From assembly GCA_000002445.1 (NCBI GenBank), contig CM000208.1, positions 1,760,001-1,824,000 on the forward strand: a DNA stretch of 64,000 nucleotides, read 5' to 3'. The stretch is from Trypanosoma brucei (taxonomy: Eukaryota). Of the stretch, positions 9,638 to 28,374 are shown piece by piece (the stretch's first letter is position 1; each line of letters begins with the position of its first letter). The position numbers were made by a program, and so were the translations under genes. The notes under the pieces were generated by a model. The model was not told the DNA's origin. It was given only the letters and a program-made list of their open reading frames with translations, and made no database searches.

Positions 9638-11236
9638 GTGTTGTGGTACATGCCAGCCGTCCGTACGAAAAGTGGCCATGGCGTGGAGTACACAGACGAA
9701 GCCATCACCGCAACGTATAGTTACAACACAACACGTGTGGAGAAGGAAGCAAATGGTGATGTGACTGTACAACCAATCCAACTCCACCTGAAGTTCCGCA
9801 CCCAACGCAAAGTACAACGCACAGGTGTTATGTTAATTGGATGGGGTGGAAACAATGGCACCACCGTGACGGCCGCTCTTATGGCTCATAAACACGGAGT
9901 CTCGTGGCGCACCAAAACTGGAACGAAACAACCGGATTATCTCGGCTCCATCACGCAGTCAAGCACGATGAGCGTAGGTCTTACAAGTGAAATGGAGGAG
10001 GTCTTCGTGCCCATGAAGGCTCTGGTACCAATGATAAATCCAGCCGAACTCGTAATTGGCGGTTGGGACTGCAGTGGTATGAATATTGCTGATGCCATGC
10101 GTCGGGCACAAGTTCTAGATGTCACGCTACAAGATGCCTTGTACAACTATTTGAAGGATATGCATCCGCTTCCCGCTGCATTCGACCTCGACTTTGTCGC
10201 GGAGAATCAACTCAGTCGTGCGGATAACATCATGCAGACAAAGAATAAGTGGGAGTCGGTGGAGCAGCTGCGGGCGGATATCCGCAACTTCAGGGAAAAG
10301 AATTCTCTTGAAGAAGTTATCGTACTTTGGACAGCGAACACCGAACGCTTCTCAGAGCATATCACCGGGGTTCATGACACTGCTGATCATTTGATCGATG
10401 CCATACGGCGGAATGAGAATGAAATTGCCCCTTCCGTACTGTATGCAACAGCAGCTATTATGGAAGGCTGCAGTTATATCAACGGAGCTCCACAAAATAC
10501 CTTATGTACTGGCCTTATAGAGCTTGCCCGTAGGCATGGTGTGTTTGTTGTTGGGGATGACTTTAAAAGTGGTCAAACAAAGGTGAAAAGTGGCCTGGTG
10601 GAGTTCTTCATGGATGCCGGTATTAAACCCGAGTGCATAGCCAGCTACAACCATCTTGGCAATAATGACGGATATAACTTGGCAGCCCCAAAGCAGTTTC
10701 GTTCGAAGGAGGTTACGAAAGGCGGTGTGCTGGACGATATGGTATCGTCAAACAGTATTCTTTACCCACCAGGAAGCCGAGGCCCTGATCACTGCATTGT
10801 TATTAAGTACCTCCCGTATGTGGGTGACAGCAAACGTGCATTGGATGAGTACAACTTCTCAATATTTATGGGAGGTGAACAAACAGTGGTGCTCCATAAC
10901 ACATGCCAGGACTCGTTGCTGGCTGCACCACTTATCATTGATTTGGTTGTGCTAACTGAGTTGATGCACCGTGTCACCGTGACGCAATGCGATGGGGAAG
11001 GTTGTTGTGACAAGAAGGAAAAAATGACATCATATACGCATATGGAAACGGTGCTTTCACTTTTATCTTACTTGCTGAAGGCTCCACGTGTGCCGGAGGG
11101 AACACCTGTGGTGAATGGACTAAATCGACAGGGGCAAGCCATTAAGAATGTATTGCGTGCACTCGTTGGACTTCCACCGGATAACAATATGCAACTGGAA
11201 TGCCGACTGCCTTTCCTTCGCGGCGTGGGAAGTTGA
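9638..11236 (+). CDS. INO1: myo-Inositol-3-phosphate synthase
   Basis: Conserved MIPS blocks: MLIGWGGNNGTT (NAD-binding GWGGNNG), NGAPQNT, SYNHLGNNDG, and LAAPLIIDLVVLTEL near the C-terminus. The start may be the ATG at 9650 (MPAVRT...). Confidence 0.92.
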   Translation: MLWYMPAVRTKSGHGVEYTDEAITATYSYNTTRVEKEANGDVTVQPIQLHLKFRTQRKVQRTGVMLIGWGGNNGTTVTAALMAHKHGVSWRTKTGTKQPDYLGSITQSSTMSVGLTSEMEEVFVPMKALVPMINPAELVIGGWDCSGMNIADAMRRAQVLDVTLQDALYNYLKDMHPLPAAFDLDFVAENQLSRADNIMQTKNKWESVEQLRADIRNFREKNSLEEVIVLWTANTERFSEHITGVHDTADHLIDAIRRNENEIAPSVLYATAAIMEGCSYINGAPQNTLCTGLIELARRHGVFVVGDDFKSGQTKVKSGLVEFFMDAGIKPECIASYNHLGNNDGYNLAAPKQFRSKEVTKGGVLDDMVSSNSILYPPGSRGPDHCIVIKYLPYVGDSKRALDEYNFSIFMGGEQTVVLHNTCQDSLLAAPLIIDLVVLTELMHRVTVTQCDGEGCCDKKEKMTSYTHMETVLSLLSYLLKAPRVPEGTPVVNGLNRQGQAIKNVLRALVGLPPDNNMQLECRLPFLRGVGS

Positions 11237-12838
11237 TGGTGCAAAGGAAAAAAAAAAAAGAAAAGCGACTTTGACTGAACAAAGTGGGCATGTGCAGTTT
11301 GTTTAAGCGTGCGCATGTGCATGTGTGTACACACAGAAGGTAGCTGAATGTAACCGTCTACTTCGTTCCGCATATTTTGACTTAATAGCGGTAGTGTTGC
11401 GATTCCGCGCCTGTACGATAATAAAGGCAATTCAAACGCACAGCCGCGGTTTGTAATGACATATGCAACACGTGTGTATATTACTCCAAAGATGGTGGTA
11501 AAATAGAGGAGGCATGTGTGTGGAGGGAGGGGCGAAGAGATCGGGAACGGGATTGGGGGAACCACGTGTGTTATTATCCACATGGCTCCATTAATCAATC
11601 GGATTTGTGAGGGTTCTCTTCATTCCCCGATGTTTTCTTTTCATTTATCTATTCGTGTGCGTGTGAAAAGGTTTAAAAAAAGATAGGGAAGAAGCGTTAC
11701 ATCCCTATCAAAAAGAAAAAAAGAAAATTGAGTTTTTTCTACCTTATTTTGTGTTGACAAAAATCAATACATTCCTTCATATTCGGGCTCGTCTCCATTA
11801 TGACTTCCTCCATACGTGCTAAGAGGAAATGGAGAAGGCATGTGAAGCTGGTTTAGCGTTTGTTCTTTTTGTGTTGTTGTTGTTGTTTTCGCAAAATGGA
11901 AGGAACGAAATTTGAGCCCGCTCACAAACCCTCAGTTACAACCGATGGAGGTCGCGTGTTTCAGCAGCCAGCGAATGCGCTCATCAAAGGCAAAGTTTCC
12001 CTTGGGAAAATTAGTTACGTTTGAATAATAGCACCTGTCGCCCGAAACTCCATGGGAAGGATTCAGTGAGTTTATACCCTAATAATTACCCTTTTCTATG
12101 AGGAGCGTTGCCCTCCCGTCTTCTTAATTATCGCTTGTTTCCTCCGCAACGGGCCGTGAGGACAAAAACACAACGCTTTTTCCCCCCCTTTTGGAGGAAC
12201 TTGGCATGGTCTAGCAGGGTCCGTTTGTTTGTTGGGTGTTTTGTTTTGAATACTTTTTTCGTGCAACTCTCCGTTAACTCACGTCGTTGTGGGGTTGTAA
12301 AAAAGAAAGAAAAGATGTCACTGTCCCACTCGACTGTAGCGGTGGGAAAAAAAAAAACATTACTTTCGCGTGCATCAGCAGACGGTCAGGCGTCTGACGC
12401 GCCCACAGCTCTGTTCTTTTCCTCTTCTCGCCCTCAAACATATGCCTTTTTTTTTTCGGGTGTTTGTTTGCTTGCCTGCTCACTTTAAATTGCTTTTCCA
12501 CTCCCCTTTCCCGTTTGCATTCTACTTTGGTATTTTATTTCGTTTGGATACCCTCTCTGTTAACCTCGGAAAAAGTAAATTAACACAATATAGAATCCAC
12601 AAAAGGCGTGAAGTGAAGGAAGTGGTGGAGAGGGTGGGCACACCAGTAGTAACAGGGACGACAAAACAGACTCAGTTGCCTCTGCTATTGTTCCTTTGCA
12701 CCATTTCGTGTGTGTGTGTGTGTGTTTGAGTGCAAAGAAAAGAAAGAAAGGAAAAGGAGTGCGAGGGAAAGGGAAAGGGATACATCAAGGTTGAGTTGTA
12801 TATAAACTTACACTTTTACTTTCGCTAGGAACCGCGGG

Positions 12839-13816
12839 ATGCCTTTAAGGACCGATTACGCTCGCTATCCGCGTGATGTGCGTGAAAAACAGAACGTGAC
12901 GCGGCCCGCCGGGGAGCGGCGCCTGGCGGATCTTCACCTCACCGCATACCCCAGTGTTCTCAACAGTAATGCACTGGCGGCAGCAGATTCATCTGAAACC
13001 CCGCCAAAGCCCGTTGCGCAGAACAAACCGTACATGGAGAAACCTCCAGTGGAGCTGATGACAACAAATCAGTTGACCGCGCTCCTCAGTAAAATGGCGA
13101 AAGAGGAGGCACTCAAGGACACAACGAAGGGTACGCCACTCGGTGGCGTGGAGTGTACGGAACTGGATCGCAAAACAACCTACCGACTCGATTATTGCAA
13201 CAAGGACGTGCCGGGATTTCACACACGGCAGCGGGTTATACCAGACTACATGAAGAACTGGACTGAGACAGAGAAGGATGATATCCGAGAAGCCAGGAAG
13301 TATCCTTATCTCTCTATCCCGCAGAGTGTGCTTAATTGTCGACCAACTACGTACCGCCGTGATTACATTCCGACAGCACAGCCCAACGAATACAGGACTC
13401 TCTCTCACAAGACAAACCTCCAGGATATGCCTCCATCCTTCGCGTACTCAACGTATGCACTGGATGATCCACGGCGCATCATTAAGTACGACGAGGTTGT
13501 GGCCGCGTGCAGCAAACCAAAATGCATGCTGTGGAAGAGTTATAGTCCGCGCGATTCTTTCCGTGCGAAGACAGGAGTTGCAAAGGACGTTGCCGAGGAG
13601 TTGAGACTACTGCAAGAGTTGCGAGGGCCATCGAATCGATCGTCGGAATCGAGCTCCGTGGCTGGGAAACAGAGGGAAAGCAGTGTTGAATGCAAGAAAC
13701 CGATTCTCTTGCCAGGGTTGCGTGGAATGGGATATCGTATGGCACCGGGTGATGGCAAGGAGTACATTTGGCTTCCTCGAGATCACTTTTGTCATCGAAT
13801 CGTATATGACTACTAG
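12839..13816 (+). CDS. Hypothetical protein (325 aa)
   Basis: Long ORF on the cluster strand with coding-like composition, preceded by a pyrimidine-rich tract. I recognised no domain. Confidence 0.6.
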   Translation: MPLRTDYARYPRDVREKQNVTRPAGERRLADLHLTAYPSVLNSNALAAADSSETPPKPVAQNKPYMEKPPVELMTTNQLTALLSKMAKEEALKDTTKGTPLGGVECTELDRKTTYRLDYCNKDVPGFHTRQRVIPDYMKNWTETEKDDIREARKYPYLSIPQSVLNCRPTTYRRDYIPTAQPNEYRTLSHKTNLQDMPPSFAYSTYALDDPRRIIKYDEVVAACSKPKCMLWKSYSPRDSFRAKTGVAKDVAEELRLLQELRGPSNRSSESSSVAGKQRESSVECKKPILLPGLRGMGYRMAPGDGKEYIWLPRDHFCHRIVYDY

Positions 13817-14426
13817 AACTTCTGCCAGCAGTTTGTTCGTGTAACAACTGTCATCTGACTTACACTGATTGGCACTGAGACAAAAGGATATGGTTGACGT
13901 ATGTAGAGATTTTATATGAAAATTGTGTGTTCCTACAATTGGCTTGAGCAGGTCCCTATTCCAATGGAATCTGTACTATATGTCCGCAGGGGTGTGGATG
14001 CCTTTCCACCTCCCCAGGCGAATGAAGGGAACGCAAGAGAGCCCTCTCTCGTGTACAGAAAAAGAAAAGGGGGGAAGAAGAAAGAAAGAGAGGTGTTTGG
14101 CATTATGTGGGTATGCATGACTCTTCTCTCGCTCTCTCTCTCCCTCTCTTACCTTGTACATTTTCTTTTTTGTGTGCCGTCCCTCCTCCTTCGCCTGATG
14201 AGCACAACCTCACTGCTATTATTAACTTCATCACCATGACACTTCCGGCAAATCCTGTTAGGGTCACACTGGCACGGGTAAAGCACATTTTGCCCATGTT
14301 TACATAACTCTATCTTTAATTTCATTTCTTCGTGTTTTGCCTTCCTTCCACCCCCGCACCGCCCCACGTACGCACGTGCGCCGTGTTCCTAAGGTAACAC
14401 AAGGAACATAAATCAAGCGATTACAC

Positions 14427-16667
14427 ATGGCTTCCGACTTGCAGAAGTCGCGGAACACAGTAAGCGCTGTGCGGAAAATGTTAGTCGGCGACCTTAAGGA
14501 CAACCCTGACGAGCGCCTGAAGGTGTACAACATGCTTGCCGACACTCCATTTAAAGGCACGGGAAAGTCGCCATCGGATCACTGGGTTTCCATGATGTTA
14601 AAGGCGGTGCAGGATCCCTGGTCTCGCATCCGCAAGTTAGGGAGACAATGTCTTCTACGCATCGCCTCCACGCAAACAGGCGTGCAAAAAAAGCGCTATA
14701 TCAAGCAGCTATTAAATCTCGTGCGGGACAGGTGGCCGCGAGTTAGAAATTGGTATGAAAAAGAGGGATTGCTCCTTCTGTTGCTCGATGTGCTTAGCTT
14801 CGCGGAGCCTACCTCGTTAGAGGAAGGTTTGTTAGCAAATATGCTGCTTCTATTGGTTCTACCGTCGGTGTCCGATCCTCAGTTACCGGTAAGTGACGCT
14901 GCGGTTGAGGTGGCACTTCTTGTCACACAGCGTAGTGAAAACCTCGCTTCCTTCACAGTAGATTACAACGTGGTAGCACTCAGAAAGACATGTATCTTTG
15001 ACAAAACCGGTGTTTCGGATCCTCTCACTACTGCTGGACATCTCGGCTGTTTGGCAAAGCTCCTGGCGCTGCATGCAGGGTTGTATACCACCCGTTTGAT
15101 GGCAGACCTGCATCCAATTCTCCAGCAGTTGTCTGCTTATCCTGCTGCTAGTCTTCGCCAACAGGTAGCTCGAGTATGGGCGCTACGCTCCGTAGAAAAC
15201 TTTGACATGGCTCTTACCACAATGGTTGAGAAGGCACACGCCCCCTCAGATAGTGATGAGTGGTGGTGCGTGGTAGAGACACTTCTCATGGCACTGCAGG
15301 AACAATTAACGTATTACCTGTGCTTCCCGGAGAAGGCAAGGGCGCTAAAGCAAATGGCACGCGGAACCATCGTTAAGTCACTTTACGCAGTTCTGGTCCT
15401 GATTGAGGCAAAGCAGTTCGAGGTGGCTCGCATGGCGAAGCAGGTTTTGCCTCTGCTCACGCAGTTTGTGGTTCGATTTACGGAATCCCTCGCATTCCTG
15501 GGGGAGTTGTTGGGTAAAGAAGCCGCACGATTTCAGGAGCGCACGAACTTTGCTTTCCCTTTCCTGTCTGATTTAGTCTGGTTTTTGGTAATTCGACGGT
15601 ATGTGCGGCCCGCTGGGGAGGCAACAGCAGTGCAGAAGGCCGTGATGCAATACCTGATTCCGAGCCTTGTTGGGGAAGGAGATGTGAGCGGCAACATCGA
15701 CACAGAAGGCGTAGCAGCAACCCGGGGGCATGTCGACGACCCACTGTCTGTCATACTTGTCTGCACTTACTTTCCCGAATGCTTAAAGGAACCCGCCGGC
15801 AAAAGACTTTTGAAGTTTGCCATTGATGAGGCGGCGTGGCGGAAGGCATTTTCATGTTTCGGGAATGTTGTCCAATACGCATCAGATTTCACACTTTTAA
15901 TCAGGCAGGAGGAAGTGTCAGCGGGGCAGCTGTTGCCGTTATGGTTCAATTGGCTAGCTGGAGCGTATACACATCAGCAGTGCTTGATACTGGATGCAAT
16001 AAAGGTTGCTATCGCCCCAAAGGAGCAGTTAGTAGGACGAAAGCGCCTCTCATTTGCATATCACTCGGCTTTCTACGCGCCCACAATGAAAGATGAAGGG
16101 GAGGAAGTACCGCTCGGCTTCCACTGGCTGAAGCAGCGCTTCCCAAGCGAGGAGTTGCTGCCAGAGACGCAGCCGGTGCCTATGAATAATATGGAGGGGG
16201 TGGAAGATGTCTTGGGCGACCTCCACAACGTGGTATACCGAAAACTGTACGCCTACAAAGGCACGGAACCATCAGTCCTTAATGCGGTGCGTTCCTTAAT
16301 GATGGCGGAGTGTGGGGCTATGCCACAGCATAAAACACTTGCCGCTGTCGTCTCCGCCGTTGTCACACGCTTGGACAGTGTGGCACCCGAGTGGCGCGGT
16401 GTGTTGGTAACGCAGGGTGCAAAATCGGTCGGCGAAACCACCGCCGCCACGTCCAGGACGGGGGATGCACCATCTGGTGGTTGCAACAATTGGGATGATT
16501 CCGACAGTGAGGAAAACGTCGCAGGTGTAAGTCCGGATGAAGAGATACGGAATGCACGAACAACCCTGTCTGCATTAGTTTACACACATTTTGATGGGAG
16601 GGAAGAGGCTTTTATTCAAGCTGTTTGTGCCACGGGTTCTGAGGATGTGAGGAAGTTGCTGCGCTAA
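14427..16667 (+). CDS. Hypothetical protein (746 aa), helical-repeat-like
   Basis: Long uninterrupted ORF on the cluster strand. Leu-rich amphipathic segments suggest HEAT/ARM-like repeats. No catalytic motif found. Confidence 0.65.
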   Translation: MASDLQKSRNTVSAVRKMLVGDLKDNPDERLKVYNMLADTPFKGTGKSPSDHWVSMMLKAVQDPWSRIRKLGRQCLLRIASTQTGVQKKRYIKQLLNLVRDRWPRVRNWYEKEGLLLLLLDVLSFAEPTSLEEGLLANMLLLLVLPSVSDPQLPVSDAAVEVALLVTQRSENLASFTVDYNVVALRKTCIFDKTGVSDPLTTAGHLGCLAKLLALHAGLYTTRLMADLHPILQQLSAYPAASLRQQVARVWALRSVENFDMALTTMVEKAHAPSDSDEWWCVVETLLMALQEQLTYYLCFPEKARALKQMARGTIVKSLYAVLVLIEAKQFEVARMAKQVLPLLTQFVVRFTESLAFLGELLGKEAARFQERTNFAFPFLSDLVWFLVIRRYVRPAGEATAVQKAVMQYLIPSLVGEGDVSGNIDTEGVAATRGHVDDPLSVILVCTYFPECLKEPAGKRLLKFAIDEAAWRKAFSCFGNVVQYASDFTLLIRQEEVSAGQLLPLWFNWLAGAYTHQQCLILDAIKVAIAPKEQLVGRKRLSFAYHSAFYAPTMKDEGEEVPLGFHWLKQRFPSEELLPETQPVPMNNMEGVEDVLGDLHNVVYRKLYAYKGTEPSVLNAVRSLMMAECGAMPQHKTLAAVVSAVVTRLDSVAPEWRGVLVTQGAKSVGETTAATSRTGDAPSGGCNNWDDSDSEENVAGVSPDEEIRNARTTLSALVYTHFDGREEAFIQAVCATGSEDVRKLLR

Positions 16668-17248: not shown

Positions 17249-18754
17249 ATGCCTTACGCCTGCCTCCATGGCGGTTCTCTGTGCTTGTTGATATCGCTGC
17301 TTTCGTGCCTCGGTGCCCAGGCAGTACAAACCCTACACCTTGTGCAGCTTGTCCACCGTCACGGAGCGCGGTCTCCCAAGGTAAAACACAATCAAAGTCA
17401 AATATGCGGTGAGGTGCCGTGTGGGTATCTGAACGCTGCCGGGAAGATGATGCTAGTCAATGCAGGTGAATTTCTTAGGAATCACTACAACAGTAACGCA
17501 TCTGAGCCTTTCTTCCCGGAGGAGAGTTACAACTCCTGTGTGACCTACTCGCGTTCCACAGATGTCCCGCGTACGCTGCAGAGCGCTGGGTGTCTTCTGC
17601 GCGGAATGTTCCCCAATGCGTCGGAATTCTTTCCAGCTATACACACTGCAGATGTGAGTACCGATTGGCTACTGCGTTACGACGTGATACCTCAAGCATA
17701 CGCCTTCAGTCATTTAGATGAGCATTGGTGGAGAAATGTGTGTAACCCAAAGCTGGACACGCTTATCGACACCAACACGTTGTTATCCGTTTCGCGGGAG
17801 GTGTTCAGTGAAGGGTTCTGCGCTGATCCACAAAACCGGTGCCATTGCGCGGCGACGCTGTTCGACATTGGTGTCGCCATGCAGTCCGACGGTCGCATCG
17901 ATAAACACCCACTTTTGAGGGAAAATCTCGGCCGGTTGCGCGATATCAAGTTCTTTGAGGATTCTCACCGATTTGTTTACAACGCCTCTGATCGTACGCA
18001 CGCAAAGATGGGGAGTTTGGGGCAGCACCTTGCTCAGGAAATTTTGAAAAATGCGGAGAATCATATGAATGGACTAACGTCGTACAAACTCTATCACTAC
18101 AGCGCACATGACACAACGATAGCACCACTGGCTGCGACACTCGGGGACAGCACAACCACTGGAATCACGCCACCTTACGGTCAGCTGTATGCTTTTGAAC
18201 TGCTGTACGACCACGAAGTTAAAGGGTATATTATTCGGATAAGGCGCGGTGCGCCAGGTCAGAAACCCGAGGAAGGCTATGCATTTAGTTGGGGAGAGTT
18301 TCAGATGAAATGCATGAACGAAAACCACACTGTTTACACAGCTGAGGACAACAAGTGCCCTTACCACGACTTCCGGCGGTTCGTGAAATCCACCAAACCG
18401 CATGATCCCGCGGGACTTTGTTATCTCAACCGGAGGTACCGCGAGCTTTTCCACTGCCCGGGAAATGTTGGAAAACCACCTAATAAGCAGTGCAAAGTCT
18501 TTCGGCGTGTGTGTCCAGCGTGGTCCTGCGAAGAAGGTTACACGTTGAACAGTGTTACCTTAGAGTGCGTGTGCAGTTCCAGGAAATGTATGGAGAATCG
18601 TGACCTGAGCATCAGCACTGACACACTTGGCAGGAATCTTTTCACCATCTTCATCTTTGTGCTCTTGGCACTTCTCATCCCTATTTTTTCCGTATTCGTG
18701 TGCATCGGTAAAAAATTGCGGGCACGAACCCGCAGAACGAGGGCGAAGGGCTAG
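17249..18754 (+). CDS. Membrane-bound histidine acid phosphatase (type I membrane protein)
   Basis: Signal peptide MPYACLHGGSLCLLISLLSCLGAQA. RHGxRxP signature LVHRHGARSPK, and a distal HD motif (YSAHDTT). Cys-rich juxtamembrane segment. C-terminal transmembrane span LFTIFIFVLLALLIPIFSVFVCI followed by a basic tail. The ORF-track start at 17123 translates a pyrimidine tract, so I moved the start to the ATG at 17249. Confidence 0.85.
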   Translation: MPYACLHGGSLCLLISLLSCLGAQAVQTLHLVQLVHRHGARSPKVKHNQSQICGEVPCGYLNAAGKMMLVNAGEFLRNHYNSNASEPFFPEESYNSCVTYSRSTDVPRTLQSAGCLLRGMFPNASEFFPAIHTADVSTDWLLRYDVIPQAYAFSHLDEHWWRNVCNPKLDTLIDTNTLLSVSREVFSEGFCADPQNRCHCAATLFDIGVAMQSDGRIDKHPLLRENLGRLRDIKFFEDSHRFVYNASDRTHAKMGSLGQHLAQEILKNAENHMNGLTSYKLYHYSAHDTTIAPLAATLGDSTTTGITPPYGQLYAFELLYDHEVKGYIIRIRRGAPGQKPEEGYAFSWGEFQMKCMNENHTVYTAEDNKCPYHDFRRFVKSTKPHDPAGLCYLNRRYRELFHCPGNVGKPPNKQCKVFRRVCPAWSCEEGYTLNSVTLECVCSSRKCMENRDLSISTDTLGRNLFTIFIFVLLALLIPIFSVFVCIGKKLRARTRRTRAKG

Positions 18755-19532
18755 TGCATTGTTGTTTTGTGTTTGTGTGTATGTGTTTCCGTTTGGGGAT
18801 GACGGGGCATTTGTAGACCAGGGAAGCCGCAGTATGATACTGGTATCTGACTGTTCTGATGCATGTGGTTTGTCCGCTGCTTTCCTCCGTTTAGTCCGGC
18901 TCCGTTCGACCTCAAGCTCCTCATGCAAAGAACGTAACTGCCGAATACCGTAGACGCTTAGTTCCTCCGGTGGATGCAGTGTAAAAATCGGACCAACAAC
19001 CAGTGATATAACAAATCCCCACCATCTTCCTCTGGGACTGGCCTGTTGTAAATAAGTTTGTTTGCGTGAATTTTTTTGACCTTGTGCGGTAATCACGTGA
19101 GGCCCTGGGAGAAGGGTGACCCTTCCTCTACACCCTCAGGCCTGAAAGAAAGTGCTCTCCTGAAGGGCAAATTGCTCGCACTAAGCACATAAAACCCTCT
19201 GTTTGCGTTTTCTCACTGTGCATAAAGTGGAAGGGATATGTGTTCAGCGAAGTGATGAGACTTCGCCAATGTTTGGGCGTATGTTTGATATGTGTTGCTC
19301 GGGCCCCTCCCCCCACGGTGCTGGCCGGTCATTTTTTTTTGTTGGCGGACGCCAGCACTGCAGCGGAGAGGTGCCGATGCGCTGTATCTCTTTTGTGCGG
19401 CTTCATGGAAGTTACGACCGAAATAACCGGAAAGGAAACTCCAACTCACCGCCGTCGCGTTGGCCGCAAGACGGTCGTGTCGTGTTTCTCCTAACATTCG
19501 CGTCTCGGTACTATCGGCGGGGCAGCCGGCGC
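18755..19532. other. Convergent strand-switch region between the plus and minus polycistronic clusters
   Basis: All supported CDSs from 250 to 18754 are on the plus strand. All from 19533 to the window end are on the minus strand. No tRNA-like A/B box was found in between. Confidence 0.7.
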
Positions 19533-19817
19533 TCATGCATGTAGCCTCGCAACTCCACGGAGCAGTTGGACTTCCTCGAGTTTTCTGTCAGCCTCCATGA
19601 GTTTCTGCTCGACGAAACCGTGCACAGCCTTTAGTTTTTTTGAGGTATTACATAACGCTTTTATTGCGGACAATTTCAAAGCTGCCCCAGCGTCCGCATG
19701 ATGACAACAACCACTTACTAACGCCACTACTAAAAATGCCACTGTTCTTCGCATTTGCTGAAGAAAACAAAAGATGCCTGGCACCTGCAACCCACTAAGT
19801 TTTCCCTTAAACCACAC
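19533..19817 (-). pseudogene. Truncated paralogue of the N-terminal part of the 20184-20969 protein (signal peptide plus helical region only)
   Basis: ADAGAALKLSAIKALCNTSKKLKAVHGFVEQKLMEADRKLEEVQLLRGVARL aligns with ADSGALSLSGAAEALRNASGKLKSVYAFVQAKTKYATEKVREFEDMVELVRL of the neighbouring ORF (about 40% identity by eye). The ORF terminates after 94 aa. Confidence 0.35.
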
Positions 19818-20183
19818 AAACTAAGAAATACGAATTTAAAACAACCAAAAATAACAACGCGAGGGTCCTCCTGAGAGAGTCAGCCCTGCCAACACCACAT
19901 ATCGCCATCTCCTCCAACAGCTTCTCCTCTTGCACCGTTTCTCTGTTCCCGAGCACGACGAATGACTTCCCACTATCCTCATCTACCACTACTGTGCTTT
20001 TATTTCCGTGGGTGCCCGTGTTCACAATAGCTTGCGCGTATTCCCAGTTCCAGTGTGCGCCGGTTTCGTGCGCCAGCTCTTCGATGTGAGTATACAAGTT
20101 CACAAATTTGCGAAGCTCTCGGTAGGCGTTTCTAAGAACGGGGACGTTGTTAACGGGGTCTTCCTCCCAAGTTACATCGTGTA

Positions 20184-20969
20184 TTAGAACCTCTGCACGG
20201 GTTTTTCCTGTCCCCCCAACGAATCCTCTTCCACTTCGTTTAAGGGAAATAATTCTATCTCCCCAGAGTATTCCTCTGGAGGTGCTGTTTTCGGAGAGGT
20301 AGCCGCCCCCGGACGGGTGTTTGTTAGGTGGCAGTTTGCGCTGTGGACGTAGCGTTCCAAGGGGTTTCCACCGCCACCAGTGAGCCTAAGCAATTCGTTC
20401 ATACTCTCCCGTGTCATGTTCATTTCCTCCACCCTTTCCATGCGGTGCATACCCCCCAAAGAAATAAATTCATCCTTCTCCGAGTCACTTAAATAGCAAT
20501 TCAACAACTGATTCCGCGTCGCGTGGTGCTCGCTATTTCCTACGCAAAAATCCCCTTTCCCACTGGAATACGCGCGCCGCCACACATTTATCATTTCATC
20601 CAACCTCCCCGCCGCTATCCCTGCTGCCCCTACCGCTGAGTATCCAAGATATCTCAACCTCTTCAATTCTCTCCTCTTCACCCTATTCACTTTACTCCCC
20701 ACACGTTTCAAAAACTTCGCGATCCCCGTGCACGAGGTCCAATTGCTATTTCCCCCTTCATTTCCCCTAACCTTCACAATCTTCAACCTCACCAACTCCA
20801 CCATATCCTCAAACTCCCTCACCTTCTCGGTTGCATACTTAGTTTTCGCTTGGACGAAGGCATACACCGATTTCAACTTCCCCGACGCATTACGGAGCGC
20901 TTCCGCAGCTCCACTCAAACTCAGTGCGCCACTGTCCGCAAAAGCAAAATGACAAAGAGAAAAATACAA
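20184..20969 (-). CDS. Hypothetical secreted/surface protein, possibly the 5' part of a frameshifted gene that continues into 19807-20103
   Basis: N-terminal signal-peptide-like MYFSLCHFAFADSGA. The 261-aa ORF is followed, in another frame, by ORF 19807-20103. That ORF ends in a hydrophobic GPI-signal/TM-like tail (LALLFLVVLNSYFLVCVV). The two starts differ by one frame. Confidence 0.5.
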   Translation of the reverse strand: MYFSLCHFAFADSGALSLSGAAEALRNASGKLKSVYAFVQAKTKYATEKVREFEDMVELVRLKIVKVRGNEGGNSNWTSCTGIAKFLKRVGSKVNRVKRRELKRLRYLGYSAVGAAGIAAGRLDEMINVWRRAYSSGKGDFCVGNSEHHATRNQLLNCYLSDSEKDEFISLGGMHRMERVEEMNMTRESMNELLRLTGGGGNPLERYVHSANCHLTNTRPGAATSPKTAPPEEYSGEIELFPLNEVEEDSLGGQEKPVQRF

Positions 20970-24393: not shown

Positions 24394-27300
24394 TTACGGT
24401 TTCGCTTCATCTGAGGATTGAGTTACGGGTACGGCAAAAGATGCATCAGATAAGCATCGTGGCACCTCCTCCATCATAACCTCGTTGTCGCATATGACAA
24501 CCGCGTTCTGGCGTTCCCTTCCCAAAAATAAAACTGCCGACAGCCCCACCGCCAGTAACAAAAACGTGGAACCAACCAAAAGCAGCAATCCCGCACTGAC
24601 GCTCGATCCTTTCCCCTTTGCATTCGAGAACTTGGGGGAATCCTCAGTAGAGCATCCATCACAGAATGCAACAAGCTTTAACGAACACGAAGATTTCAAG
24701 AACATTCCGTCAGTCCCGTCCGCTGCATCGCTTACCTCCGTATCATTGCAGTCACCTGTGATGTCGCAATCATCAGTTTCATTGCAGTCACCTGTGATGT
24801 TGCAATCATCAGTTTCATTGCAGTCACCTGTGATGTCGCAATCATCGGTTTCATTGCAGTCACCTGTGATGTTGCAATCATCGGTTTCATTGCAGTCACC
24901 TGTGATGTTACAATCATCGGTTTCATTGCAGTCACCTGTGATGTCGCAATCATCGGTTTCATTGCAGTCACCTGTGATGTTGCAATCATCGGTTTCATTG
25001 CAGTCACCTGTGATGTTACAATCATCGGTTTCATTGCAGTCACCTGTGATGTCGCAATCATCGGTTTCATTGCAGTCACCTGTGATGTTACAATCATCGG
25101 TTTCATTGCAGTCACCTGTGATGTTGCAATCATCGGTTTCATTGCAGTCACCTGTGATGTTGCAATCATCGGTTTCATTGCAGTCACCTGTGATGTTGCA
25201 ATCATCGGTTTCATTGCAGTCACCTGTGATGTTGCAATCATCGGTTTCATTGCAGTCACCTGTGATGTCGCAATCATCGGTTTCATTGCAGTCACCTGTG
25301 ATGTTGCAATCATCGGTTTCATTGCAGTCACCTGTGATGTCGCAATCATCGGTTTCATTGCAGTCACCTGTGATGTTACAATCATCGGTTTCATTGCAGT
25401 CACCTGTGATGTCGCAATCATCGGTTTCATTGCAGTCACCTGTGATGTCGCAATCATCAGTTTCATTGCAGTCACCTGTGATGTTGCAATCATCGGTTTC
25501 ATTGCAGTCACCTGTGATGTTGCAATCATCGGTTTCATTGCAGTCACCTGTGATGTTACAATCATCGGTTTCATTGCAGTCACCTGTGATGTCGCAATCA
25601 TCGGTTTCATTGCAGTCACCTGTGATGTTGCAATCATCGGTTTCATTGCAGTCACCTGTGATGTCGCAATCATCGGTTTCATTGCAGTCACCTGTGATGT
25701 CGCAATCATCAGTTTCATTGCAGTCACCTGTGATGTTGCAATCATCGGTTTCATTGCAGTCACCTGTGATGTTGCAATCATCGGTTTCATTGCAGTCACC
25801 TGTGATGTTACAATCATCGGTTTCATTGCAGTCACCTGTGATGTTGCAATCATCGGTTTCATTGCAGTCACCTGTGATGTTGCAATCATCGGTTTCATTG
25901 CAGTCACCTGTGATGTTGCAATCATCAGTTTCATTGCAGTCACCTGTGATGTTGCAATCATCAGTTTCATTGCAGTCACCTGTGATGTTGCAATCATCAG
26001 TTTCATTGCAGTCACCTGTGATGTTGCAATCATCAGTTTCATTGCAGTCACCTGTGATGTTGCAATCATCAGTTTCATTGCAGTCACCTGTGATGTTGCA
26101 ATCATCGGTTTCATTGCAGTCACCTGTGATGTTGCAATCATCGGTTTCATTGCAGTCACCTGTGATGTTGCAATCATCAGTTTCATTGCAGTCACCTGTG
26201 ATGTCGCAATCATCAGTTTCATTGCAGTCACCTGTGATGTCGCAATCATCGGTTTCATTGCAGTCACCTGTGATGTTGCAATCATCAGTTTCATTGCAGT
26301 CACCTGTGATGTCGCAATCATCGGTTTCATTGCAGTCACCTGTGATGTTGCAATCATCGGTTTCATTGCAGTCACCTGTGATGTTGCAATCATCAGTTTC
26401 ATTGCAGTCACCTGTGATGTCGCAATCATCGGTTTCATTGCAGTCACCTGTGATGTTACAATCATCGGTTTCATTGCAGTCACCTGTGATGTCGCAATCA
26501 TCGGTTTCATTGCAGTCACCTGTGATGTCGCAATCATCGGTTTCATTGCAGTCACCTGTGATGTTGCAATCATCGGTTTCATTGCAGTCACCTGTGATGT
26601 TGCAATCATCGGTTTCATTGCAGTCACCTGTGATGTTGCAATCATCAGTTTCATTGCAGTCACCTGTGATGTTGCAATCATCAGTTTCATTGCAGTCACC
26701 TGTGATGTCGCAATCATCGGTTTCATTGCAGTCACCTGTGATGTTGCAATCATCGGTTTCATTGCAGTCACCTGTGATGTTGCAATCATCAGTTTCATTG
26801 CAGTCACCTGTGATGTCGCAATCATCGGTTTCATTGCAGTCACCTGTGATGTTGCAATCATCGGTTTCATTGCAGTCACCTGTGATGTCGCAATCATCAG
26901 TTTCATTGCAGTCACCTGTGATGTTGCAATCATCAGTTTCATTGCAGTCACCTGTGATGTTGCAATCATCAGTTTCATTGCAGTCACCTGTGATGTCGCA
27001 ATCATCAGTTTCATTGCAGTCACCTGTGATGTCGCAATCATCGGTTTCATTGCAGTCACCTGTGATGTTGCAATCATCAGTTTCATTGCAGTCACCTGTG
27101 ATGTCGCAATCATCGGTTTCATTGCAGTCACCTGTGATGTCGCAATCATCGGTTTCATTGCAGTCACCTGTGATGTTACAATCATCGGTTTCATTGCAGT
27201 CACCTGTGATGTCGCAATCATCGGTTTCATTGCAGTCACCTGTGATGTTGCAATCATCAGTTTCATTGCAGTCACCTGTGATGTCGCAATCATCGGTTTC

Positions 27301-27840
27301 ATTGCAGTCACCTGTGATGTTGCAATCATCAGTTTCATTGCAGTCACCTGTGATGTCGCAATCATCGGTTTCATTGCAGTCACCTGTGATGTTGCAATCA
27401 TCAGTTTCATTGCAGTCACCTGTGATGTCGCAATCATCGGTTTCATTGCAGTCACCTGTGATGTTACAATCATCGGTTTCATTGCAGTCACCTGTGATGT
27501 CGCAATCATCGGTTTCATTGCAGTCACCTGTGATGTTGCAATCATCGGTTTCATTGCAGTCACCTGTGATGTTGCAATCATCGGTTTCATTGCAGTCACC
27601 TGTGATGTTACAATCATCAGTTTCATTGCAGTCACCTGTGATGTTACAATCATCGGCGTAACCCGTAGCGTTCTTGTAGTCGAAGAAGAAATCATCATGT
27701 ACGGCATCAGCAGGGGGTGTGGCTACCTCAGCATTTGATTCTTCAAAGATTGGACCTGCCTCGTTAGCCATGCCAGGCACACACGCGGTGCTGGTGAATA
27801 AGACGGTCATAAACAAAGGAATGTAGTATTTGGCGGACAT
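24394..27840 (-). CDS. CRAM: Cysteine-rich acidic integral membrane repeat protein (CRAM-like), type I membrane protein
   Basis: Signal peptide MSAKYYIPLFMTVLFTSTACVPG. About 81 tandem copies of the 12-aa unit DDC(N/D)ITGDCNET. C-terminal transmembrane span GLLLLVGSTFLLLAVGLSAVLFLG plus a roughly 40-aa cytoplasmic tail. This matches the published description of T. brucei CRAM: a 12-aa repeat encoded by a 36-bp unit, flagellar-pocket location. Confidence 0.9.
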   Translation of the reverse strand: MSAKYYIPLFMTVLFTSTACVPGMANEAGPIFEESNAEVATPPADAVHDDFFFDYKNATGYADDCNITGDCNETDDCNITGDCNETDDCNITGDCNETDDCNITGDCNETDDCDITGDCNETDDCNITGDCNETDDCDITGDCNETDDCNITGDCNETDDCDITGDCNETDDCNITGDCNETDDCDITGDCNETDDCNITGDCNETDDCDITGDCNETDDCNITGDCNETDDCDITGDCNETDDCDITGDCNETDDCNITGDCNETDDCDITGDCNETDDCDITGDCNETDDCNITGDCNETDDCNITGDCNETDDCDITGDCNETDDCNITGDCNETDDCDITGDCNETDDCNITGDCNETDDCNITGDCNETDDCDITGDCNETDDCNITGDCNETDDCNITGDCNETDDCNITGDCNETDDCNITGDCNETDDCDITGDCNETDDCDITGDCNETDDCNITGDCNETDDCDITGDCNETDDCNITGDCNETDDCNITGDCNETDDCDITGDCNETDDCNITGDCNETDDCDITGDCNETDDCDITGDCNETDDCNITGDCNETDDCNITGDCNETDDCNITGDCNETDDCNITGDCNETDDCNITGDCNETDDCNITGDCNETDDCNITGDCNETDDCNITGDCNETDDCNITGDCNETDDCNITGDCNETDDCNITGDCNETDDCNITGDCNETDDCNITGDCNETDDCDITGDCNETDDCDITGDCNETDDCNITGDCNETDDCDITGDCNETDDCNITGDCNETDDCNITGDCNETDDCNITGDCNETDDCDITGDCNETDDCDITGDCNETDDCNITGDCNETDDCDITGDCNETDDCNITGDCNETDDCDITGDCNETDDCNITGDCNETDDCNITGDCNETDDCNITGDCNETDDCNITGDCNETDDCNITGDCNETDDCDITGDCNETDDCNITGDCNETDDCNITGDCNETDDCDITGDCNETDDCNITGDCNETDDCNITGDCNETDDCDITGDCNETDDCNITGDCNETDDCDITGDCNDTEVSDAADGTDGMFLKSSCSLKLVAFCDGCSTEDSPKFSNAKGKGSSVSAGLLLLVGSTFLLLAVGLSAVLFLGRERQNAVVICDNEVMMEEVPRCLSDASFAVPVTQSSDEAKP
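24732..27650. repeat. 36-bp tandem repeat array (about 81 units) inside the CRAM-like CDS
   Basis: Plus-strand unit: tcattgcagtcacctgtgatgt[t/c]gcaatcatc[g/a]gtt. Three polymorphic positions per unit: AAC/GAC (N/D), ACC/ACT (synonymous Thr) and TGC/TGT (synonymous Cys). Confidence 0.95.
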
Positions 27841-28374
27841 TGCCCTGTTTAAGAATAGCGTTAACTTGTGTCGCGAAAGCTCCTTGGGATGAGGAGGTAG
27901 GGGAAAGGAGAGATTTAGAACATTGGAGAGGACGCAAAGTGAATTCGGGCTTCAAGAGGCGCAGGATGGAAAAAAGAGTCAGAACATCGAGCGACAGCAT
28001 GGTGGTGAAATCTTTCAAACAAACTCACCCTTTTAAGGCACATACCTTATCCGTTTCTTCCCCCACCGTTGAGGCCACTGAAGCTTCTCCGCACTGCCAC
28101 ACTTGCAACAAAGGTGCCGTACACAAAACAAGTTGAAGGGAGAATTGACCGTGGACCACAAAAAATGTCTGAGAATTCCAATCGATGTGGCTCACGTCGA
28201 ACCCCAACACCGGAAGAAACGATCCCCAAAGAGAAGCCTAGCAGGCAAAGTCTTTTTATCAACCCCCATCCGGCCAGCTCTTCAATCAGTCTGAGAATAT
28301 GAGGTATATTTATCTGCTGAGCATGCGACAGGAGGATTGTGGAAGCACCACGCGGTACTGACGCTTGACGAGTG

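Follow-up and report, generated by a model that had tools for sequence, protein, structure and literature searches.

[quoted passage not shown] Two further open reading frames across the same region, 24485..27661 (+) and 24732..27707 (-), were rejected as genes, being stop-free frames of the CRAM repeat; among all frames across the array, only that of 1148 aa encodes a coherent protein architecture. A tRNA scan and an Rfam scan of the window returned no matches. Near the N-terminus aa 5-19 form a hydrophobic core, 11-aa windows that start between aa 5 and aa 13 (thus covering aa 5-23) average 1.35-1.8 on the Kyte-Doolittle scale, and small residues stand at -3/-1 ahead of aa 20 and aa 24, a heuristic sign of cleavage; the signal peptide, called by hydropathy and the -3/-1 heuristic, is predicted only. 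Towards the C-terminus, aa 1083-1106 are the one place in the protein where the Kyte-Doolittle mean over 19 aa exceeds 1.6. Hydropathy therefore agrees with a preliminary description of this DNA, which had placed a repeat array between a signal peptide and a transmembrane-plus-tail segment, and the layout is that of a type I protein (signal peptide, single transmembrane helix and a tail of ~41 aa, here 42). The predicted protein has a pI of 4.05, 168 Cys and 134 N-glycosylation sequons, and its charge composition is extreme, with 376 Asp+Glu against 11 Lys+Arg. On the general pattern of trypanosome splice acceptors, the polypyrimidine tract and AGs lying 41-44 nt upstream of the ATG are a putative trans-splice acceptor.

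Table 1. Features of the CRAM gene, in window positions
Feature	Position	Strand	Basis
CRAM coding sequence, 1148 codons + stop (stop codon 24394..24396)	24394..27840	-	ORF list, Pfam, flank identity
Predicted signal peptide, aa 1-23 (MSAKYYIPLFMTVLFTSTACVPG)	27772..27840	-	hydropathy heuristic
Unique N-terminal ectodomain segment, aa 24-62, one NAT sequon	27655..27771	-	
81 head-to-tail 36-bp units, DDC(N/D)ITGDCNET, aa 63-1034	24739..27654	-	TRF + unit parsing
Unique membrane-proximal stalk, 48 aa, aa 1035-1082, 4 Cys	24595..24738	-	
Single transmembrane helix, aa 1083-1106 (AGLLLLVGSTFLLLAVGLSAVLFL)	24523..24594	-	hydropathy
Cytoplasmic tail, 42 aa, aa 1107-1148	24397..24522	-	
Polypyrimidine tract 27899..27913, then AG at 27883-27884 and 27880-27881	27880..27913	-	sequence read directly

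The identification as CRAM, already proposed in the preliminary description, is borne out by both the repeats and the flanks. The Pfam model PF07016 (CRAM_rpt), whose cut-off is 19.8, scored 1612.9 bits in 77 stretches, and the non-repeat flanks share 155 of 165 residues (94%, E 9e-116) with an nr record named 'cysteine-rich transmembrane protein precursor - Trypanosoma brucei (fragments)'. This original CRAM deposit (1990) begins at the residue corresponding to M24 of the window protein and contains one unit only; it differs by 10 substitutions across the 165 flank residues. The window protein has the repeat peptide of the known CRAM unchanged, and signal peptide, repeats, stalk, transmembrane helix and tail of ~42 aa follow in the known order. 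The genomic setting identifies the window as chromosome 10 of the TREU927 reference genome: the products of nine neighbouring ORFs are identical to TREU927 chromosome-10 proteins (EAN78117-EAN78136), four of them exact to TREU927 alone, and the CRAM ORF fits the annotated gene Tb10.6k15.3510 in chromosomal position, with no difference detected between the two. There being no direct accession match, it is the neighbours, together with the 80x repeat count discussed below, that support equating the ORF with this gene model. Searches for relatives returned little else. An exact-sequence look-up in a collection of 15 billion proteins found none of the CRAM queries (the TREU927 protein, its two alternative starts, and the IVM-t1 and DAL972 products); the neighbours do occur there, but such repetitive proteins are apparently left out, so that the absence of homologues from it is weak evidence. 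When the array was collapsed to 4 units between its flanks and this construct was used for a homology search, the old 'fragments' entry was the sole match. An exhaustive HMMER search, in which 1.84 billion representatives were compared with the C-terminal 126 aa, detected no distant family, yielding that same entry and two irrelevant repetitive proteins (E 4e-5 and 7e-4).

Tandem Repeats Finder reported a single array at 24743..27656 with a period of 36, 80.9 copies, 96% matches and no indels, and in-register parsing resolved it into exactly 81 units spanning 972 of the 1148 aa (84.7%). The estimates made beforehand from protein length, about 81 copies and some 85% of the coding sequence, were thus accurate. 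The units comprise 52 copies of DDCNITGDCNET, 28 of DDCDITGDCNET and a single terminal DDCDITGDCNDT. Each carries two Cys; two sequons are present in 52 units and one in the other 29, again as the preliminary description had it (up to two per unit). Leaving aside the last unit, only 3 of the 36 nucleotide positions vary: position 9 (C/T) and position 36 (C/T) are synonymous, and position 10 (A/G) switches Asn and Asp. Seven unit variants are arranged aperiodically, with no autocorrelation peak indicating higher-order periodicity; the longest exact duplicate inside the array is 214 bp, and 97% of 200-mers and 100% of 250-mers are unique. The longest repeated string of units is five units long, a length reached in 69% of shuffles and hence at chance level. 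Switches between Asn and Asp units are slightly more frequent than a random order would give (46 runs against 38.2 expected, P ~0.03), an excess that is marginal.

The abstract of Lee et al. 1990 reportedly describes the repeat as 'roughly 66-fold', the figure against which the preliminary description had set its own count. A literature search for the figure of about 66 copies found nothing relevant and, because the only deposit retrieved from that era is the 'fragments' entry with its one unit, the 66 is taken to be an older estimate and not a sequenced count. Therefore, although the difference in array size from the original description stands, with 81 now exact, the novelty implied for it does not: Table 4 of a 2007 repeat survey already lists CRAM, Tb10.6k15.3510, with 1 TM and 80 x ITGDCNETDDC (PMC2254594). 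Indeed, the window protein contains exactly 80 perfect ITGDCNETDDC, as expected from 81 units of which the last is variant. Since that printed count for the TREU927 gene model matches ours, the copy number of 81 is already public and the finding is correct but ordinary; CRAM has been under study since 1990, and as a discovery this carries little importance.

CRAM is confined to the flagellar pocket and has been postulated to be a lipoprotein receptor (PMC2365980), and a passage of a review citing Liu et al. 2000 describes it as an HDL receptor in procyclic forms, adding that further HDL uptake routes exist (PMC9719944); the preliminary description, which had named it a flagellar-pocket lipoprotein-receptor candidate, is in line with this literature. 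Exit of CRAM from the ER requires its cytoplasmic domain (PMC2739429), its cis-acting sorting motifs have been mapped according to a passage in a paper citing Qiao 2006, and expression studies find it commoner in procyclic forms. We regard it as very probable that this architecture, lipoprotein uptake at the flagellar pocket and concerted evolution of the array belong together in one explanation, for which identity, architecture, unit count, provenance and the disagreement between assemblies were computed here, and location, ligand, sorting signals and stage regulation come from the literature. The signal peptide would send CRAM, a type I membrane glycoprotein, into the ER, with an ectodomain consisting almost wholly of the 81 copies of an acidic 12-aa unit bearing two Cys and one or two sequons. 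Signals in the tail would then, judging from the published work, secure ER exit followed by retention in the flagellar pocket and endocytosis in procyclic forms. There the polyanionic ectodomain would bind lipoprotein (HDL has been shown, and insect lipophorin suggested), perhaps electrostatically, leading to receptor-mediated uptake, with the gene being dispensable in culture.

The receptor role itself is not settled, because the gene is dispensable and HDL has alternative uptake pathways. CRAM may instead belong primarily to the lumen or glycocalyx of the flagellar pocket as a polyanionic, heavily glycosylated component, serving as a spacer, cation binder or protective matrix and not as a lipoprotein receptor, in which case repeat number would set bulk or length and not ligand valency. 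Knockouts grow normally and are normal in their pH response (PMC8807625), and CRAM has also been termed 'a FP protein of unknown function' (PMC2365980). The extreme composition, with 376 acidic residues against 11 basic ones and 134 sequons, would suit such a role, as would the failure to detect an LDL-receptor class A domain (see below). Nevertheless, the trafficking signals in the tail are of a kind typical for receptors that cycle, and the review passage citing Liu et al. 2000 assigns HDL receptor activity to CRAM (PMC9719944), so we consider this alternative rather unlikely.

The original CRAM paper reportedly claimed a resemblance to LDL-receptor class A modules. These modules are, like CRAM, extracellular, Cys-rich and strongly acidic, and lipoprotein binding has been proposed for both, but a module has ~40 aa and 6 Cys whereas the perfectly periodic CRAM unit has 12 aa and 2 Cys. 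The corresponding Pfam model, PF00057, had no match in the whole protein at E<=0.01, nor, at E<=10, in either a repeat fragment of 231 aa or the last 126 aa, a threshold to be read with the fact that HMMER filters drop many matches above E ~0.1. With PF00057 undetected, membership of CRAM in the LDL-receptor class A family was rejected; from outside that family, CRAM may still function as lipoprotein binders of acidic character do. Another comparison is with the procyclins (EP/GPEET), which are likewise acidic, regulated by stage and found on the surface of procyclic T. brucei, are built from short perfect tandem repeats and appear together with CRAM in the repeat survey (PMC2254594) and in expression studies. 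Procyclins, however, are GPI-anchored, Cys-free and spread over the whole surface with far fewer repeat residues, whereas CRAM is transmembrane and restricted to the flagellar pocket (PMC2365980).

A structural alternative would have the array fold into a long beta-solenoid rod stapled by disulfides, tens of nanometres in length and with each coil made of 12 or 24 residues, which would bring CRAM nearer to insect antifreeze beta-helices or curli subunits than to LDL-receptor-type modules. AlphaFold2 does predict a beta-solenoid for the CRAM repeats, but a meaningless antisense frame of the same DNA gave the same fold with equal confidence, so the prediction is uninformative and leaves the fold unsupported. 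A sequence search of the PDB gave no CRAM match at E<=10 and Foldseek against the PDB nothing at E<=0.001; with respect to beta-solenoid proteins such as curli CsgA and the insect and bacterial antifreeze beta-helices, the prediction does not discriminate, and CRAM has no sequence similarity to solved structures. We hold the rod to be quite improbable. Since a nonsense frame is predicted just as confidently, high-confidence AlphaFold2 solenoids of such perfect repeats are not to be trusted.

The length of 81 units rests on one assembly, and the array is resolved in none of the others examined. In T. b. gambiense DAL972, 56 units are followed by 100 N and by a repeated segment (DTD end, intergenic region and CRAM 5' end) with 23 units; in T. 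equiperdum OVI the contig breaks off 45 bp inside the array; and T. equiperdum IVM-t1, an assembly made mainly from short 300-bp MiSeq reads with just 7,508 PacBio reads, has 27 units. Logan short-read contigs stop in the DTD-CRAM intergenic region and, ending short of the array, say nothing about its length. The warning in the preliminary description that such regions are collapsed or mis-sized in assemblies thus proved apt. These failures, and the fact that the TREU927 reference shows a diploid genome in haploid form, could mean that 81 is an artefact of mis-joined units and that the true TREU927 array, in one or both alleles, is substantially longer or shorter; yet we find this highly doubtful, because aperiodic internal markers allow reads of Sanger length to tile the array unambiguously (no duplicate exceeds 214 bp), the window is gap-free with an intact, in-frame ORF, and the count has been stable since the figure printed in 2007. 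With each 250-mer of the TREU927 array unique, 81 units is plausible. The array is also well suited to testing trypanosome assemblies. Of the four public Trypanozoon assemblies considered, three show a break, a gap or a possible collapse at CRAM, and statements comparing CRAM length between strains should for that reason not rely on assemblies unless reads back them.

The segment aa 24-62 shares 99.5-100% nucleotide identity with three other Trypanozoon assemblies, and the C-terminal unique part of TREU927 CRAM differs from DAL972 and IVM-t1 at 6 residues, 4 of them in the stalk, with one conservative K/R change relative to the other assemblies in the tail. Within the array, the same three unit sites vary in every assembly at very different frequencies: Asp-variant units make up 36% in TREU927, 7% in IVM-t1 and 12% in DAL972; C at position 36 is found in 68%, 7% and 16%, respectively; and T at position 9 in 14%, 63% and 43%. 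Because the variable sites are shared by every assembly and their frequencies are very different, we infer that concerted evolution, through unequal exchange or gene conversion, would keep the DNA of the array homogeneous. The unit peptide would thereby stay conserved apart from one Asn/Asp toggle, and unit number and the dominant synonymous variants would differ by lineage. The differences in unit number, from 81 in TREU927 and at least 56 (possibly 63) in DAL972 to 27 in IVM-t1, with the older estimate at ~66, could be partly real. Were they so, and the array a disulfide-stapled rod, CRAM might be a length-tunable receptor evolving fast by unequal exchange. We think this improbable; if true, repeat number would set the reach of the receptor into the flagellar-pocket lumen.

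By its sequence, the open reading frame at window 24394..27840 (-) is CRAM, the cysteine-rich surface protein of the flagellar pocket. Its sole Pfam-A family is PF07016 (CRAM_rpt, 1612.9 bits, cut-off 19.8), and a homology query of the CRAM flanks plus four units against 5.8 billion proteins returned one match, the 165-aa nr entry 'cysteine-rich transmembrane protein precursor - Trypanosoma brucei (fragments)', to which the flanks, repeats collapsed, are identical at 155 of 165 positions. Both results bear out the identity put forward in the preliminary description, and the array and ORF that it reported are indeed present at the positions it gave. Its 'about 81' units are exactly 81 when parsed in register, its array share of about 85% of the CDS was measured as 84.7% of the protein, and its signal peptide and TM-plus-tail correspond to a hydrophobic core at the N-terminus and to the TM helix and tail listed in the table. 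Tandem Repeats Finder, one of the checks it had proposed, reports one array only, at 24743..27656 (period 36, 80.9 copies, 96% matches, no indels).

The 12-residue units fall into three classes: DDCNITGDCNET (n=52), DDCDITGDCNET (n=28) and a terminal DDCDITGDCNDT (n=1). The last unit excepted, only 3 of 36 nucleotide positions vary; C/T at positions 9 and 36 is synonymous, and A/G at position 10 switches between Asn and Asp and with it the NIT sequon. The protein contains 168 Cys, 376 Asp+Glu versus 11 Lys+Arg, and 134 N-X-S/T sequons; its pI is predicted to be 4.05. Trypanosome trans-splice acceptors typically consist of a polypyrimidine tract and a following AG; one such arrangement can be read directly from the sequence 41-73 nt 5' of the CRAM ATG and is a putative acceptor for this gene. 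The first residue of the 1990-era nr entry corresponds to Met24 (MGNEAGP...; window 27771), and the entry thus lacks a 23-aa hydrophobic leader that is present in all three genome assemblies. Close to its N-terminus two residues also differ (A->G), perhaps through old sequencing errors or because the strains differ.

The window is part of reference chromosome 10 of TREU927, in a housekeeping region. Nine neighbouring ORFs exactly match proteins of T. b. brucei TREU927 (EAN78117 to EAN78136, XP_822945 to XP_822964) encoded on a 4,054,025-bp contig, and for four of them TREU927 is the only exact match in the public collection; the gene adjoining CRAM upstream encodes D-Tyr-tRNA deacylase (DTD). 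ORFs of at least 200 aa occupy the + strand as far as window 18754 and, from 20184 on, the - strand, and CRAM therefore lies near the end of its own transcription unit, adjoining a convergent strand-switch region (about 18750..20200). No tRNA or Rfam family was found across the whole window. None of the CRAM proteins of TREU927, DAL972 and IVM-t1 is in a 15-billion-protein collection, although all neighbours tested are; this collection may under-represent highly repetitive proteins, and empty homology searches for them therefore mean little.

The abstract of Lee et al. 1990 reportedly described the repeat as 'roughly 66-fold'. The search returned just one deposit of that era, which bears the label 'fragments' and contains a single unit; we infer that the array interior was incompletely sequenced and that the figure of 66 had been estimated, in another strain. 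A computed 66-unit version would have 968 aa (103 kDa), against 1148 aa (122 kDa) with 81 units. The count of 81 is not new, as CRAM (Tb10.6k15.3510, 1 TM) is listed with 80 x ITGDCNETDDC in a survey of perfect repeats in proteins that was published in 2007 (PMC2254594). The window protein holds exactly 80 non-overlapping ITGDCNETDDC, because the last of its 81 units is variant. The copy number has therefore been public for many years with the reference annotation. Within the TREU927 array, seven unit variants follow one another in aperiodic order, the longest repeated string (5 units) equals chance and exact DNA duplicates within the array reach 214 bp at most. Every 250-mer occurs only once, as do 97% of the 200-mers, and thus Sanger-length reads could tile the array unambiguously; the window contains no N. 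The count of 81 is plausible, although it cannot be proved without reads.

The warning that such arrays are collapsed or mis-sized in assemblies was well founded for DAL972, OVI and IVM-t1. When the locus was fetched through its DTD neighbour, these assemblies and TREU927 disagreed on the array, and TREU927 has the sole contiguous long version among those compared.

Features of CRAM and of its locus in other assemblies
Feature	Sequence	Position	Strand	Remarks
CRAM ORF	window	24394..27840	-	1148 aa
CRAM repeat array	window	24739..27654	-	aa 63 to aa 1034
Single TM helix	CRAM protein	aa 1083-1106		followed by 42-aa tail
Other-frame ORF	window	24485..27661	+	about 1000 aa; crosses array
Other-frame ORF	window	24732..27707	-	about 1000 aa; crosses array
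T. b. gambiense DAL972 locus	L002 (from FN554973.1)	11175..15255		56 units (first block); 100 N at 13193..13292; repeated last 70 bp of DTD, intergenic region and CRAM 5' end; 23 units (second block); CRAM 3' end
T. equiperdum OVI	L003 (from CZPT02001890.1)	11177..11221		contig ends 45 bp into array
T. equiperdum IVM-t1	L001 (from CM010681.1)	11177..12148		27 units; CRAM intact, 500 aa
Six Logan short-read contigs	ERR7929156-ERR7929164 (L004-L009)			carry DTD gene

The two DAL972 blocks share an identical stretch, units 48-55 of the first being the same as units 8-15 of the second, and simple overlap of the blocks suggests that the real array has about 63 units; the arrangement looks like a contig mis-join or a tandemly placed allele rather than a true duplication. 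The IVM-t1 assembly combined 300-bp MiSeq reads (ABySS, k = 68) with only 7,508 PacBio reads and was scaffolded on TREU927 (PMC6395869), and its 27 units are therefore possibly a collapsed array. The Logan contigs stop 215-362 bp past the DTD stop codon, 5' of the CRAM start codon, all inside the pyrimidine-rich intergenic region, and are thus uninformative on the array. Over the DTD gene, intergenic region and CRAM 5' unique part, OVI is 100% identical to the window, and DAL972 and IVM-t1 are 98.7-99.8% identical. Downstream of CRAM, IVM-t1 carries a retroelement ORF pair (RVT_1/Exo_endo_phos, RNase_H; L001 16450..20456) that begins where window homology stops, at about window 20457, and is not in TREU927 or DAL972.

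The same three unit sites vary in all assemblies, at very different frequencies. In TREU927, IVM-t1 and the first DAL972 block, respectively, the Asp variant (position 10 = G) makes up 36%, 7% and 12%, C at position 36 68%, 7% and 16%, and T at position 9 14%, 63% and 43%. The unit peptide is invariant, the Asn/Asp toggle aside, a pattern that would be expected under concerted evolution with purifying selection on the peptide. DAL972 and IVM-t1 have the same sequence in the C-terminal unique part (stalk, TM and tail; window 24397..24738), and TREU927 differs from both by six non-synonymous and two synonymous changes. Four of the six lie inside 20 stalk codons, one adds a Cys in TREU927 (S->C), and the cytoplasmic tail has a K/R change only. 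The 1990 deposit agrees with DAL972 and IVM-t1 at all six, and two other C-terminal residues in it differ from all three assemblies.

The two other-frame ORFs were rejected as genes, being stop-free frames of the repeat and hence artefacts. CRAM is a well-known annotated gene of the reference genome with a previously published copy number, and the preliminary description was correct in both observation and interpretation. The only added value lies in showing that the array is not resolved in other public Trypanozoon assemblies, and that AlphaFold2 models of it are unreliable and should not be trusted; the confident beta-solenoid predicted from the + strand artefact frame is a useful warning for repeat proteins.

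CRAM is located only in the flagellar pocket (PMC2365980) and, according to the literature, is more abundant in procyclic forms, where it is a reported HDL receptor alongside other uptake routes, with insect lipophorin perhaps its native ligand (PMC9719944). Its ER exit requires the cytoplasmic domain (PMC2739429), sorting motifs have been mapped (Qiao 2006, as cited), and it is dispensable in culture (PMC8807625). We rejected membership of the LDL-A family, since no PF00057 (LDL-receptor class A) match was found in CRAM by Pfam profile search even at E<=10 and its uniform 12-mer with two Cys differs from the LDL-A module of 40 residues with six Cys. It is possible that CRAM is no receptor and serves as a matrix or spacer in the pocket. 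Most likely, from the literature and inference, is a working model in which the glycosylated, polyanionic ectodomain would capture lipoprotein electrostatically and the tail would drive its uptake; CRAM may behave like an acidic lipoprotein binder.
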